This document shows positions 35,289-40,226 of a stretch of DNA of 64,000 bases, in pieces. The stretch is taken from positions 64,001 through 128,000 of the IMG/VR virus record IMGVR_UViG_3300012979_001162. One strand, given 5' to 3'. This DNA comes from a virus (taxonomy: Duplodnaviria; Caudoviricetes). How positions within the stretch are numbered: position 1 is the first letter of the stretch; the number at the start of each line of letters is the position of its first letter. A program made the translations under genes and the position numbers. Under the pieces are notes generated by a model, which saw only the letters and a program-made list of their open reading frames with translations, searched no databases and was not told the DNA's origin.

Positions 35289-35437
35289 ATACACTCATGA
35301 ATTCGTAAGCTTTCTTTAACAGTATCATATTATGCTGCGCTATCCTGAATAAGGATCATAAACCTGGCGATAGCCAGGTGCAAAGATCCGGTTTCAGGAG
35401 TTTGTGCAGCATTATTGAATTTTATTCCCTTGTGTAT
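35289..35437 (-). ncRNA. RT-associated array unit R8 (satellite array)
   Basis: arms ATACAC/GTGTAT; flank A ...TTTCTTTAACAGTATCAT; hairpin 35332-35412 with cGATAg loop; flank B TGAATTTTATTCCCTTG (+ strand). Confidence 0.75.
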
Positions 35438-35452
35438 ATTGGCGCTTATACC

Positions 35453-35609
35453 AACACGCTCTGCGTTTCTGTAGATATATCTTTAACAGTCTCATATTGA
35501 GATCATGAACGGATGTAAATACAGCAGTCAGGGCTGGTGATAACCAGCATTGACTGCTGTACGTCATATCATTCATGATCTGAATTGAAAGCGAAACACC
35601 TTGTGTGTT
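35453..35609 (-). ncRNA. RT-associated array unit R7 (satellite array)
   Basis: arms AACACGC/GTGTGTT; flank A ...ATCTTTAACAGTCTCAT; hairpin 35500-35581 with GATA loop; flank B TGAA...CACCTTG. Confidence 0.75.
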
Positions 35610-35636
35610 ATGCGTTATCTATCCGCAGTTAATTAA

Positions 35637-36548
35637 TTAGTTATTATAGATTTTATCCATAGCAATCTCAAAATTAAAGTTGTTATCAGAAATAACCTTC
35701 TTCATAAGAGCAAACATTCTCCATCCTTCACCCTTGTACTCATTAAGTCTCTTGTTCAATACACTTACTGCGGCCATTCCATATACCATGCGTCCATCAA
35801 CCTTGATACCACAATTATGGAACATTACAAGGTTCTTAAGCGTGTAGAACGCACCTTCGCCCTTATATGCATCAATCCAAGCCTTGCTCTTAGGAGTAGT
35901 GTAAGGAAGTGCAATCATCTTGTACATGAAACTCTTCACAATCTTGTAAAGCTCATTGTAGTTGCTTGCATACTTAATTCTGTTAATATCATATCTAAGC
36001 GGTGCATATACCTTTTTATCCAGGTCAACAACGAAGATATTTTGGCTCTTAACTCTCTTGTAAGGTACGCCCTTGCAGTTCTTTGTAGGAAGAGTATCAA
36101 CGTGCTTCATAAGTTCTGCAACATAATCTTCCATAGTCTTCACGATAACATCCTTAGTGAAGAAATGTGCTCTTTCAACGAACGTATCTCTATCTCTTTC
36201 TTCAAGCTTACCAAGTACTCTGATTTCCTCAAGCATCATATCGAATGAGTACTTAAGACCGTGTCTCTTAACCCATTCGTTGTAACCAGTCTTTCTACCA
36301 TCGTAGGACTTGTAGTTAAGACCTTGGAACATTTGCGCCATAACAAATCTTCTGTGAAGCTGAGTATTTCTTACGTAACCGTCCTCAATGATTTGGTTTG
36401 CAATAGTGTCCTCTACTTTCACGGGATTGCCGTTTTCATCAATGATAATAGTCACACTACCACCATTCTCAAGAGGTACAGTAAAGTACTTGCTAGTGTT
36501 AACTCCCATAGCGTTAAGTTTGTTCATTCTTTCATTCTTGTTCAACAT
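35637..36548 (-). CDS. hypothetical protein (303 aa) between the two arrays, candidate RT-system partner
   Basis: long ORF with AGGAG RBS; no recognisable domain. Confidence 0.75.
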   Translation of the reverse strand: MLNKNERMNKLNAMGVNTSKYFTVPLENGGSVTIIIDENGNPVKVEDTIANQIIEDGYVRNTQLHRRFVMAQMFQGLNYKSYDGRKTGYNEWVKRHGLKYSFDMMLEEIRVLGKLEERDRDTFVERAHFFTKDVIVKTMEDYVAELMKHVDTLPTKNCKGVPYKRVKSQNIFVVDLDKKVYAPLRYDINRIKYASNYNELYKIVKSFMYKMIALPYTTPKSKAWIDAYKGEGAFYTLKNLVMFHNCGIKVDGRMVYGMAAVSVLNKRLNEYKGEGWRMFALMKKVISDNNFNFEIAMDKIYNN

Positions 36549-36613: not shown

Positions 36614-37084
36614 TTACTTACCTTCGACCCAACTTCTTAATAGAACCAAATCCGGGTCATTTTTTGATTGGTAAAACCATTTACCCTGCATTATGTCTTC
36701 ATCCCATACCAGTTGTCCACTCACAATCATACACAGTACAAATCCTTCAAGTGCTGCTTGTGAAACCTCTCTCCTTTCTGCAACTATAAGTTGCTCGTCT
36801 GTGATTTCTTCCATAGGAAGCGCTTTGAAATAGTGTCTGCGCTTGTTATCACTCCTTTCGCTCGGTAGAGAGATTTTATAACTTCGATATCTTTGCAGAA
36901 TCCCTTGAAGAATATCTTCTAAGCAATCCTGTTTAAAGACTGGGTTTATCAGCTCTTTTGATTCATCAAACTCTCCGTCCTTAATCAGATAATCATTTCC
37001 AACTTTCATATTTCTTTTTTCAAAGTCAATATGAAATGACTCACCATCGCTTACCCTATTAATAAGCTCTTCATAGATTGACAT
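36614..37084 (-). CDS. hypothetical protein (156 aa) directly after the main array, candidate RT-system partner
   Basis: ATG at 37084 with GGAGGT RBS (37091-37096). Confidence 0.75.
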   Translation of the reverse strand: MSIYEELINRVSDGESFHIDFEKRNMKVGNDYLIKDGEFDESKELINPVFKQDCLEDILQGILQRYRSYKISLPSERSDNKRRHYFKALPMEEITDEQLIVAERREVSQAALEGFVLCMIVSGQLVWDEDIMQGKWFYQSKNDPDLVLLRSWVEGK

Positions 37085-37106: not shown

Positions 37107-37263
37107 ATAGACACTCAATAGTTGTGGCACATTTCTTTATTTGCTTCATAATATCAGATAAGAGAAGCTTTCACGACGCCAGAAGGCGGTAGTCACCGCG
37201 TGGATGGCGTCGTGTGAGCTTATTACTTATCTGGGATTTGAATTTAACTACCTTGTTATCTAT
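37107..37263 (-). ncRNA. array unit R6
   Basis: arms ATAGA/TCTAT; hairpin 37155-37233 (CAGATAAG/CTTATCTG, CACGACGCCA/TGGCGTCGTG, GCGGT/ACCGC). Confidence 0.75.
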
Positions 37264-37276
37264 TGGTGTGCTCCAA

Positions 37277-37429
37277 GATTGCTCATAATTACGGCACATT
37301 TCTTTAATAGTTTCATTTGTACAGGTTCTGCCAGAGCAGCACGCAAGTAGAGCGGCGTGATATCGCCGCACGAAGGGCGTGCTTCTCTGGTTAAATAACC
37401 TGTAGTATGAATTTAATTACCTTGCAACC
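37277..37429 (-). ncRNA. array unit R5
   Basis: arms GATTGC/GCAACC; hairpin 37320-37404 (TACAGGTT/AACCTGTA, CCAGAG/CTCTGG, AGCACGC/GCGTGCT, GCGGCG/CGCCGC). Confidence 0.75.
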
Positions 37430-37448
37430 AACCGCTATGCTGCGGGTC

Positions 37449-37602
37449 CAAATTGCTCACAATATTGATACATTGCTTTACTTGTTTCATATCAAACGAT
37501 AGTGCCTGTCAGGAGCAGGTTAGGACTGGGAAATTTCCCAGTAGTAACCTGCTGATCACAGGTTAACTGTCGTTTCTTTGAATTATATTGCCTTACAATT
37601 TG
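37449..37602 (-). ncRNA. array unit R4
   Basis: arms CAAATTG/CAATTTG; hairpin 37494-37575 (AAACGATAGT/ACTGTCGTTT, CCTGT/ACAGG, AGCAGGTTA/TAACCTGCT, ACTGGGAA/TTCCCAGT). Confidence 0.75.
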
Positions 37603-37620
37603 TCGTTGTACTACGAAGTT

Positions 37621-37772
37621 AAACTACTCACAACCACGATACATTTCTTCATTAGTTTCATGAGTGAAGGCTGGCTCCGAGTAAAGGAGCTGCGATAATC
37701 TACGATAGCGGATTATGGCAGCTCATGTCTCGGGTGCAAAGCCTTCTGCTGAATTTGATTGCCTTGTAGTTT
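37621..37772 (-). ncRNA. array unit R3
   Basis: arms AAACTAC/GTAGTTT; hairpin 37666-37746 (GAAGGCT/AGCCTTC, CCGAG/CTCGG, GAGCTGC/GCAGCTC, ATAATC/GATTAT, cGATAg loop). Confidence 0.75.
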
Positions 37773-37790
37773 GCTGATGTATTTCAGGCT

Positions 37791-37946
37791 TGAATTACTC
37801 ACAACTGCGACACATTGCTATATTTGTTTCATGAATGGAGGTGTAGTCTGAAAGACGTATCTTGATTCAGGAATTATTCCTGAATTGAGGATACGTCCTT
37901 CAGAGTTATGACACCTCCTTGCTGAATTTAGTTGCCTCGTAATTCA
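37791..37946 (-). ncRNA. array unit R2
   Basis: arms TGAATTAC/GTAATTCA; hairpin 37837-37918 (GGAGGTGT/ACACCTCC, TCTGAA/TTCAGA, GACGTATC/GATACGTC, ATTCAGGAA/TTCCTGAAT). Confidence 0.75.
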
Positions 37947-37960
37947 TCACTGTGTTGTGG

Positions 37961-38131
37961 ATGATTGCTCGCAACGATGGCGCATATCTTTAATTGTTTC
38001 GTATTAGGAAGAAAGTGCTAACTTTCTTTGCATCGCAGGATGAGCCGGCGCTCTGCGCCTGCTCTGATCCTGCCATCCCAAAGAAGTTTGTCATCTTGCT
38101 TCCGAATTGAATTTCATTGCCCAGCAATCAT
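37961..38131 (-). ncRNA. array unit R1 (RT-proximal)
   Basis: arms ATGATTGCT/AGCAATCAT; hairpin 38007-38103 (GGAAG/CTTCC, CTTTG/CAAAG, GCAGGAT/ATCCTGC, GGCGC/GCGCC). Confidence 0.75.
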
Positions 38132-38140
38132 TTTGTTGCG

Positions 38141-39424
38141 TTACATAGTTCTGACTAATGCTTCATATACAGCCCTACTCGTCAAGATTGCATTCTGCAT
38201 ACAACCAATAGTCAAATAACCATTGATTTCTTTATCGGTTTTATGACGGTTTGCCGTTACATTCTTGCCGGTGCCTCGCAGAATAGTATAATCATCTCGG
38301 TCGTTCACACTACCAAGACCGCCAATCTTTTTCTTCTTTGTGGCACAGGCTCTAATGGAATCCATCACAAAAGCATTCAGTGTTTCAATATCCTTTTCCA
38401 CATTAATAATCGGCAGTACTGAAGTTGCCCAGGAATACTTGCCATCTCCTTTGTAAAGATAGTCATTAACTCTGTTGGTTGCTTTTGTTAACGAAGTTTT
38501 ACGCTGCTTGATTGTTCGTGCTTCAATCTCCCTTTGAAAGCTTTTAACACGAGACTTGGAGAGTGTGATTTGGTCGCCCTTGATATTAAATCCAAGGAAC
38601 TTAACCCATCTGTCTTTATAGACAATCTCTACTTTCTTAGGATTGAGCGACACTCCATACTTGCTAATAATCTTATTCATATCGGCAATTACTTCCCGTG
38701 GATTATTGTGCAAAGTCATACAATCATCAGAGTATCTACAATAAAAGTTGTACTTATTACTCATAAACTCATCAAGCTCATACAAGATTACATCAGCAAG
38801 AAATGACCCGATTGCATTGCCTTGTCTAATACCGCAATACTGTTCAACAAGGTTGCCATCTAAATCAAACACAAGATTATTACTCCAACACTTACGAAGC
38901 AAATTCATTACGGGTTCTGTTCCTTTTTGAAAACCGAGTTTTCTTTCAATGGTATCAAACACATTGTATATGGCCTCGATGTTAACAACGTCAAAGTAGT
39001 GGGAAAAATCAGACTTGACTCCCACTACTCCGTTATTTGTTTTCATATTGACTAAATTGTTTGAAAATTCTTTTACGGTCTTACCTGTGCCCAAATTCTT
39101 CTGATAAGACTTACAAGATGGATGAATCATTTCGGGAAACAATTCAAACAAGCAGTCGTTAATCAAACTCTGAATACATCTATCCACATTTTCGCCAACA
39201 AATACTGTTCTAAATTCGCCCGGCGTTTCTTTCGGAATTTGAGCCATATGCGGAGGTATAAACTCCATTTCTTCGTTTTTAATTGCGTTATAGATTGCGA
39301 GGCGAACTTGAGGTTGGCACATTTTTCTAAGTTCGCCCTTATCTATGCCTTTGAGTTCCGCTTTCTCAATAAGCGCTTCCCAACGAGACATTTTAAACAT
39401 CTCTTCTAACAGTTTGTTATTCAT
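38141..39424 (-). CDS. reverse transcriptase (427 aa)
   Basis: RT motifs IPK.TPGEFR, DRCIQ, KSDFSHYFD, GIRQGN, RYSDD, LNPKK and FLGF; start MNNKL at 39424 with GGAG RBS, overlapping the HNH stop. Confidence 0.95.
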   Translation of the reverse strand: MNNKLLEEMFKMSRWEALIEKAELKGIDKGELRKMCQPQVRLAIYNAIKNEEMEFIPPHMAQIPKETPGEFRTVFVGENVDRCIQSLINDCLFELFPEMIHPSCKSYQKNLGTGKTVKEFSNNLVNMKTNNGVVGVKSDFSHYFDVVNIEAIYNVFDTIERKLGFQKGTEPVMNLLRKCWSNNLVFDLDGNLVEQYCGIRQGNAIGSFLADVILYELDEFMSNKYNFYCRYSDDCMTLHNNPREVIADMNKIISKYGVSLNPKKVEIVYKDRWVKFLGFNIKGDQITLSKSRVKSFQREIEARTIKQRKTSLTKATNRVNDYLYKGDGKYSWATSVLPIINVEKDIETLNAFVMDSIRACATKKKKIGGLGSVNDRDDYTILRGTGKNVTANRHKTDKEINGYLTIGCMQNAILTSRAVYEALVRTM

Positions 39425-40193
39425 TTTTCCTTCTCCTTTCATTTGGATTAAAGTACTCGTTATCACATGTTTGCGATGCATCATACGACCATTCATTAAA
39501 ATACCGTTCTTCAGCATCTTTCCGTGCCGCAATTGCATCATCAATATTTACAAAATCTCCTAAGTTAACATTCTCTCCATATTTGCAGATGTAAGCTCTA
39601 AATTTGCCGCTATCCTTAAGTTTATGGATGCCAACAATTCCAGTGTTACTATTGGCACAATTTGTATTCATATTGTTTTGACTTCTAGTTGCGATACGCA
39701 AATTACATTTACGATTATCGTTTCTTGTTTCTTTTCCGTGCTTATGGTCAATATCGTATTCTCCGTCATATTCCATAATGATTCGATGCATCAATACAGT
39801 TTTACCATCGCGATGACCAGTAACATAGTTATACATTTTTCCTTTTCCAAGAAACCATGTAATATCTTTGATTTTATCATAATCTTCTATGTCAAAGTAA
39901 AATGCCTCACCTTTATTGGTATATCCAATTCCATAATCTCCAGACAGATCAAATTTATTTGGTTTTGATAAAACTTCTTGCAATGTTTCCTTGTGAATAC
40001 AACCGCAAGACTGTGTTCTATTGTGTGTCAAACTATATCCGTCAATGGCTTTAAGTTCTGGGTTACCACAATCACACTTGCAATACCACATAACCTTGTG
40101 TTGACCACTTGGAACAACTCTATCTGGCGCTTGGCAAATTACCTCCAGTCTTCCGAATTTCATTCCTATCAAACTTTTCTTTGGTGTAATCAT
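39417..40193 (-). CDS. HNH homing endonuclease with AP2 domain
   Basis: FGRLEV..WYCKCDCG..SCGC, MHRIIM..IDHKHG..NDNRKCNLR, TGIVGI..FRAYI..LGDF; paralogous in layout to 17672-18661. Confidence 0.85.
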   Translation of the reverse strand: MITPKKSLIGMKFGRLEVICQAPDRVVPSGQHKVMWYCKCDCGNPELKAIDGYSLTHNRTQSCGCIHKETLQEVLSKPNKFDLSGDYGIGYTNKGEAFYFDIEDYDKIKDITWFLGKGKMYNYVTGHRDGKTVLMHRIIMEYDGEYDIDHKHGKETRNDNRKCNLRIATRSQNNMNTNCANSNTGIVGIHKLKDSGKFRAYICKYGENVNLGDFVNIDDAIAARKDAEERYFNEWSYDASQTCDNEYFNPNERRRKNE

Positions 40194-40226
40194 ATAACAT
40201 TCTCCTTTGTTAATCATTTTGTATTG

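Follow-up and report, generated by a model that had tools for sequence, protein, structure and literature searches.

The locus described here lies on the minus strand of a 64,000-nucleotide stretch of viral DNA (positions 64,001 to 128,000 of the IMG/VR virus record IMGVR_UViG_3300012979_001162), which was analyzed as a whole and is hereafter called the window. All of its genes are encoded on that strand, and those of the system itself are as follows.

38141..39424, minus strand: UG27 reverse transcriptase (RT); Pfam RVT_1, E 3.8e-19; PADLOC RT_UG27, 573 bits, E 9.2e-173
36614..37084, minus strand: small accessory protein, 156 aa, its ATG at 37084; PADLOC RTas346, E 2e-51
35637..36548, minus strand: large accessory protein, 303 aa; PADLOC RTas337, E 5.7e-107

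The RT_UG27 match spans the full length of the RT, the runner-up PADLOC profile being UG26 with 124 bits. The open frame of the RT extends to 39544, and homologues of 425–427 aa start at its residue 41; the ATG at 39424 is probably the true start, because among the matches listed (3455 homologues at E<=1e-30) the full-length proteins mostly have 425–427 aa. A gene for an HNH endonuclease (266 aa, 39417–40217, minus strand; phrog_99, E 1.5e-33) lies immediately upstream of the RT, and its overlap with the long RT frame is a further reason to prefer the start at 39424. A Pfam search found no domain in either the RTas346 or the RTas337 protein. Downstream of the RT stop codon, six noncoding RNA (ncRNA) units (38146–37109) are followed by the 156-aa gene, the 303-aa gene and two further units (35627–35289), and these eight are exactly the units contained in the source record (162,648 b, 95% complete). 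The UG27 group was defined by Mestre et al. 2022 (PMC9226505), and its RT profile, its accessory clusters 346 and 337 (sORF and bORF), a phage location and an ncRNA array are all found here; judged from its sequence, the locus is a UG27 reverse-transcriptase system of a phage. An Rfam search returned no known family, giving only sub-threshold, microRNA-like matches to the long hairpins, and megablast of the locus against GenBank phages gave no match.

The eight units of the window are 165–184 nt long and were delimited with a covariance model, R2.

37963..38146, minus strand: ncRNA unit 1; R2 match 78.5 bits
37793..37960, minus strand: ncRNA unit 2; R2 match 101 bits
37622..37787, minus strand: ncRNA unit 3; R2 match 101.3 bits
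37451..37616, minus strand: ncRNA unit 4; R2 match 124.2 bits
37277..37445, minus strand: ncRNA unit 5; R2 match 119.5 bits
37109..37276, minus strand: ncRNA unit 6, last of the main array; R2 match 101.3 bits
35454..35627, minus strand: ncRNA unit 7 (satellite 1) with its 5' hairpin; R2 match 35454–35620, 42.3 bits, hairpin added by eye
35289..35454, minus strand: ncRNA unit 8 (satellite 2); R2 match 35289–35453, 91.3 bits

Relatives were obtained by fetching 79 loci from IMG/VR with a profile of RT homologues. A first covariance model (R1) was made from the six units of the main array, and R2 was built from A5, a structure-blind MAFFT alignment of 58 trimmed units. Only nested helices were included in R2 (the mini-hairpin, P1a, P1b and UUCA/UGAA, described below), the pseudoknot being absent from both R1 and R2. 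R2 recovers each of the window's eight units, and its 143 matches (131 distinct units) from 38 sources form the alignment A6. Counts for the mini-hairpin stem in A6 lean towards the stem, since the units were aligned to a model containing it, and A5 is free of that bias. At two of the fetched loci (L006 and L015), no canonical array was found directly 3' of the RT.

Minimum-free-energy folding and covariation give the following order of elements in the RNA sense. The 5' part of the unit consists of the mini-hairpin, 2–4 nt, the 5' strand of P1a, an AAG bulge, the 5' strand of P1b (GGYARY) and NN-AAAUUCA; a long, variable central hairpin occupies the middle and is followed by AUG-N7-UANAG, 3 nt and a pentamer plus C; and the 3' part continues from there with two purines, the 3' strand of P1b, AG and the 3' strand of P1a. 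P1a is 93–95% paired and P1b 92–94% paired, each with five pairs changed on both sides. In a strand test, G.U cells (256) far outnumber A.C cells (37), and the fold therefore lies on the RT-sense transcript. UUCA is present in all eight window units, and the second motif reads UAAAG in six, UAUAG in one and UGAAG in one. UGAA can pair with UUCA across the central hairpin and is 96–97% paired in relatives, with variation on one side only. A separate observation concerns the apical loop of the central hairpin, the presumed template (A6 columns 154–157), which is UAUC in 88 of the 131 distinct units and UACC in 10; the UAUC tip occurs in four of the eight window units, at 37364–37367 (unit 5), about 37707–37710 (unit 3), 35539–35542 (unit 7) and 35371–35374 (unit 8). 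The tip is conserved in a template that is otherwise highly variable, and the cDNA would read GATA there.

A preliminary description of the window had drawn attention to five mini-hairpins between the units of the main array, and every unit of both arrays is found to carry one.

38134..38145, minus strand: mini-hairpin of unit 1, UGU-AACGCA-ACA; shares bases with the stop codon of the RT, TAA at 38141–38143
37948..37959, minus strand: mini-hairpin of unit 2, CAC-AACACA-GUG
37774..37787, minus strand: mini-hairpin of unit 3, CUGA-AAUACA-UCAG
37603..37616, minus strand: mini-hairpin of unit 4, UCGU-AGUACA-ACGA
37432..37445, minus strand: mini-hairpin of unit 5, CCGC-AGCAUA-GCGG
37263..37276, minus strand: mini-hairpin of unit 6, UUGG-AGCACA-CCAA
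35611..35627, minus strand: mini-hairpin of unit 7, UGCG-GAUAGAUAA-CGCA, with UAGAUA inside the loop
35439..35454, minus strand: mini-hairpin of unit 8, UUGGU-AUAAGC-GCCAA

The hairpins of units 2–6 are those of the preliminary description, whose stem, loop and stem strings are exact at these positions; that of unit 1 had been missed. Nucleotides within 38134–38146 serve both to end translation of the RT and to fold unit 1, an arrangement that is kept in a relative (L013:2440–2599). Two satellite hairpins had been described as looser versions; both are genuine and lie where they were placed, and the one at 35439–35454, once re-registered, has a stem of 5 bp around a canonical hexaloop, AUAAGC. 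The hairpin of unit 7 has a counterpart in relatives, GCAG-AUAGAUA-CUGC.

The two strands of the 64 kb together contain 13 hairpins that combine an ARYAYA loop with three or more stem pairs, compared with 7.1 ± 2.7 in dinucleotide shuffles, so that the motif alone is not rare. The arrangement is another matter, as five of these hairpins fall on a single strand (the minus or RT-sense strand) inside 700 nt and keep a phase of 170–174 nt, for which about 0.04 would be expected. The further claim that the stems all differ and all pair is borne out well beyond the window: in the 58 units of A5, pairing over the four stem pairs amounts to 91.8%, each of them is changed on both sides, none of 500 shuffles matches the score, and controls with slid strands reach 26–58%. 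That the mini-hairpin is a selected RNA element of the RT's template units is supported by this comparison.

The loop of the mini-hairpin is itself paired in the predicted fold. Its nucleotides 2–6 pair with the pentamer that starts 3 nt after UANAG, about 125 nt downstream in the same unit, giving an H-type pseudoknot of classical geometry, with a first loop of 1 nt, no spacer before the 3' strand of the stem and short groove-crossing loops. The 3' strands in the window are as follows.

37979..37984, minus strand: 3' strand of the unit 1 pseudoknot, UGCGC plus C; UGCG matched by loop CGCA, fifth position a C-A mismatch
37809..37814, minus strand: 3' strand of the unit 2 pseudoknot, UGUGU plus C; loop partner ACACA
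37638..37643, minus strand: 3' strand of the unit 3 pseudoknot, UGUAU plus C; loop partner AUACA
37467..37472, minus strand: 3' strand of the unit 4 pseudoknot, UGUAU plus C; loop partner GUACA, with one G.U
37293..37298, minus strand: 3' strand of the unit 5 pseudoknot, UGUGC plus C; loop partner GCAUA, with one G.U
37126..37131, minus strand: 3' strand of the unit 6 pseudoknot, UGUGC plus C; loop partner GCACA
35471..35477, minus strand: 3' strand of the unit 7 pseudoknot, UAUCUA plus C; loop partner UAGAUA, giving 6 bp
35305..35310, minus strand: 3' strand of the unit 8 pseudoknot, GCUUA plus C; loop partner UAAGC

Only unit 1 is limited to four paired positions out of five. On A5 the pseudoknot is 99.3% paired, with all five pairs changed on both sides, no match to its score in 500 shuffles and 6–58% in slid controls, and on A6 (131 distinct units) it is 96.7% paired. 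A blind mutual-information scan of all A6 column pairs placed the pseudoknot at ranks 1 and 3 and the mini-hairpin at rank 2. Loop and pentamer change together widely in relatives, as in GAAUA/UAUUC, ACUGG/CCAGU, GAAAG/CUUUC and GUGCG/CGCAC. The same pairing is found at a locus outside the model (L005:6290–6600), whose RT is 49% identical to that of the window and whose two units of about 141 nt give no R2 match: the hairpins GUGG-GGCGUU-CCAC and ACAUG-AGAGCA-CAUGU are present as predicted, and their loops GCGUU and GAGCA match AACGC and UGCUC at five of five positions, 3–4 nt after the UAAAG of the downstream unit. The start-side motif of that locus differs, being UUU-N7-UAAAG.

One more pair extends the helix. 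The first G in AAGG, a conserved base immediately 5' of P1b (A6 column 41), is matched by the C right after the pentamer (column 292), the states being GC in 112 units, AU in nine, UA in four, GU in two and an unpaired GA in one. This pair crosses P1b and adds one pair to the pseudoknot helix, from which two purines bridge back to the 3' strand of P1b. In the window its positions (C/G) are 37979/38121, 37809/37936, 37638/37763 and 37467/37592 in units 1–4 and 37293/37421, 37126/37252, 35471/35600 and 35305/35429 in units 5–8. It also accounts for one G of an 'invariant GG'. Judged from the relatives' units, selection maintains pairing of the RNA in the mini-hairpin stem, the pseudoknot, this G:C pair, P1a and P1b.

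These pairings change how the hexaloop is to be read. The preliminary description had taken it for a conserved motif recognized by a protein, and conservation holds for its first base, which is A in 127 of 131 units and unpaired in the model; the other five bases covary with the pentamer, and the consensus becomes ARYRYA once the sixth hairpin is included. The loop looks conserved in this array because its partner (UGYRY) is, and the one-for-one covariation of its bases with an RNA pentamer speaks against a loop motif read by a protein. The idea of orthogonal 'barcodes' selected within an array was also considered and is unsupported, cross-compatibility being 16% within arrays vs 19% between loci.

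Arrays of this kind have been described for UG27 systems in a recent preprint (bioRxiv 10.64898/2026.09.22.753630, September 2026), the text of which reports 82,314 units at 14,118 loci, with unit lengths clustering near 149 and 167 nt and a minority of about 135 nt lacking the pseudoknot. According to that text, the unit has a main hairpin broken by an asymmetric internal loop, a hairpin at its base and a pseudoknot; the central hairpin is the template, copied from the AUC of an AUC-N7-UANAG motif to just after UUYA into hairpin cDNAs of 50–100 nt; and all three proteins are required, five other loci having been assayed. A second preprint cites the UG27 arrays as known. The array, the basal hairpin and a pseudoknot are already known for UG27, as far as the preprint's text describes them, and we infer from its wording that its pseudoknot is the loop–pentamer pseudoknot defined here. 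Three points were worked out in this study, although the preprint's figures may already show them: that the hairpin belongs with the downstream unit, that there is an additional G:C pair, and that the first hairpin lies over the RT stop codon.

The loci described in the text of that preprint resemble the window in their RT group, two accessory proteins, phage location, arrays of units of about 167 nt, extra units in a neighboring intergenic region, and UUYA and UANAG bracketing the central hairpin. They differ in the start motif, which is AUC there and AUG here: the published position of the cDNA start (37998–38002 in unit 1, equivalents elsewhere) reads AUG in seven window units and ACG in unit 1, and a pattern search for the literal AUC-N7-UANAG found scattered matches only, none of them in either array. 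The G of that AUG is constant in 131 of 131 aligned relatives (A6 column 268). We read AUG in place of AUC as a clade variant of the motif and not as evidence against membership in UG27. Taking these results together, we consider it highly probable that the mini-hairpin is the 5' element of each UG27 template unit and that the loop–pentamer pseudoknot forms within the unit, as part of a core that would present the cDNA start site.

The question of which unit owns the hairpin can be addressed by comparing its possible partners, as each hairpin is flanked by a pentamer 25–30 nt upstream and by another about 125 nt downstream. Of the 83 distinct pairs of neighboring units scored, 75 were informative (their pentamers differ), and the downstream pentamer was better in 53, equal in 21 and worse in one; mean pairing out of five was 4.9 downstream vs 3.7 upstream, with 3.0 for random partners. 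The hairpins start 0–5 nt past the 3' end of the preceding unit, and every first unit has one; no hairpin was found after the last unit of either array, where the ribosome-binding site of the next gene follows directly (that of the small accessory gene in the case of unit 6). Downstream pairing, the hairpins of first units and their absence after last units together identify the hairpin as the 5' element of the following unit, and it cannot be called an inter-unit linker, as it had been in the preliminary description, being phased with the downstream unit.

The foremost alternative keeps the hairpin as a separator, whose hexaloop would be read by a protein (the RT, an accessory protein or a nuclease) that either cleaves the array to monomers or brings the RT to each unit. 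The hairpins do begin just where a monomer boundary would be, the unpaired first A of the loop could be a protein contact, and cDNA synthesis needs all three proteins according to the text of the UG27 preprint (10.64898/2026.09.22.753630). Against this, five of the six loop bases covary with their RNA partner and take nearly any sequence family-wide, which leaves one conserved base for reading, and the hairpin is in phase with the downstream unit instead of lying symmetrically between two units. Term searches of the preprint's text gave no processing data, and likewise returned nothing on priming or on mutants or probing of the hairpin or pseudoknot. We regard the separator as improbable.

Much the same data bear on the proposal that the hairpin is a staple between units, its loop pairing with the pentamer of the immediately upstream unit and thereby tying neighbors together or closing the preceding unit. 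The upstream pentamer is the nearer of the two, and three of the six adjacent window unit pairs scored pair upstream equally well; across the relatives, however, only a single informative neighbor pair favors the upstream pentamer, and first units carry the hairpin with no unit upstream, just as last units carry the pentamer with no hairpin downstream. Such a staple is very unlikely. The idea that no RNA structure is involved, the hairpins being chance palindromes, a DNA-level signal (cruciform or recombination site), weak terminators or by-products of short peptide genes starting at ATGAAAC, can draw on the roughly seven such hairpins per window expected by chance and on an ATG followed by 4–37 codons in every unit, but has next to no credibility in view of five in-phase copies on one strand, strand-specific G.U pairs, compensatory changes over 131 units, the absence of a U tract after the hairpins and the coincidence of the ATG with the AUC cDNA start position given in the preprint's text. 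Short peptides from the conserved ATGAAAC were rejected as a candidate: the start is ACG in unit 1, a TAG stands at codon 5 in unit 2, and lengths and ends vary.

The architecture of these units is worth comparing with those of other template RNAs. As in the retron msr-msd, a hairpin-forming template is copied by the RT into short single-stranded DNA, and P1a/P1b resemble the retron a1/a2 repeats in being covarying inverted repeats that close the template, with conserved G residues beside the closing stem. A retron, however, has a single msr-msd ncRNA upstream of its RT, whereas the window has six units directly downstream of the RT and two after the accessory genes, and the present system differs further in its tandem arrays and in requiring two accessory proteins. 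Nor does the RT fall in the retron clade, scoring 48.7 bits with NCBIfam retron_St85_RT (cut-off 235) and far lower with the PADLOC retron-type models than with RT_UG27. In retrons, moreover, a 2'-5' bond joins the cDNA to a conserved G. The canonical retron fold is not known to have a counterpart of the 5' hairpin pseudoknot. Another parallel is the pseudoknot and template-boundary element of telomerase RNA, where an H-type pseudoknot beside the template contributes to anchoring the template in the RT active site and to setting the start and end points of copying. Telomerase belongs to an unrelated RT lineage with an unrelated RNA, and its likeness to the UG27 unit is a mechanistic analogy only. 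A further parallel is DRT2 (UG2), like UG27 a Class 2 UG/Abi RT with a structured ncRNA, for which the text of the UG27 preprint (10.64898/2026.09.22.753630) refers to a fold, seen by cryo-EM, with a pseudoknot involving the terminal hairpin. DRT2 has a single ncRNA upstream of its RT and makes concatemeric, protein-coding cDNA by a rolling-circle process, in contrast to the short hairpin cDNAs reported for UG27.

In the predicted mechanism, the array would be transcribed from the minus strand together with the RT. On general principles of RNA structure, the hairpin stem, the pseudoknot helix and P1b may stack coaxially into a compact core, which would pin the long, approximately 24-nt 3' side of the internal loop and hold the AUG-N7-UANAG-NNN segment beside the base of the unit. 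The core would then provide a fixed platform for the RT and accessory proteins and a set distance to the first base copied, which lies 16 nt on the 5' side of the pentamer. This role may be likened to those of the pseudoknots of the DRT2 ncRNA and telomerase RNA. Assembly of the RT complex on each unit, one of the roles suggested for the hairpin in the preliminary description, is compatible with the pseudoknot model and plausible; the other, a putative cleavage of the array into monomers, is conceivable, since the junctions are just 0–5 nt long. The units of about 135 nt lacking a pseudoknot, as reported in the preprint's text, would mean that the pseudoknot is not indispensable family-wide. 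As a more speculative extension, which we hold to be doubtful, pentamer and loop might constitute a unit-specific address that forces each unit to fold on itself, the coaxial core serving as docking platform and start-site ruler and the junction perhaps marking a place of cutting. If this were true, swapping hairpin/pentamer pairs could reprogram or silence the cDNA output of individual units.

The analysis adds little by way of discovery; its gain is that the pseudoknot and the limits of the units at this locus are defined in precise, testable terms. UG27 systems are widespread in gut phages and produce libraries of short hairpin cDNAs, and an exact definition of the unit is needed for minimal single-unit constructs, for reprogramming of the template and for correct annotation of the arrays. 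Definition of the pseudoknot explains the apparent conservation of the hexaloop and lets a possible role of the pseudoknot in setting the start of reverse transcription be probed by compensatory mutations.
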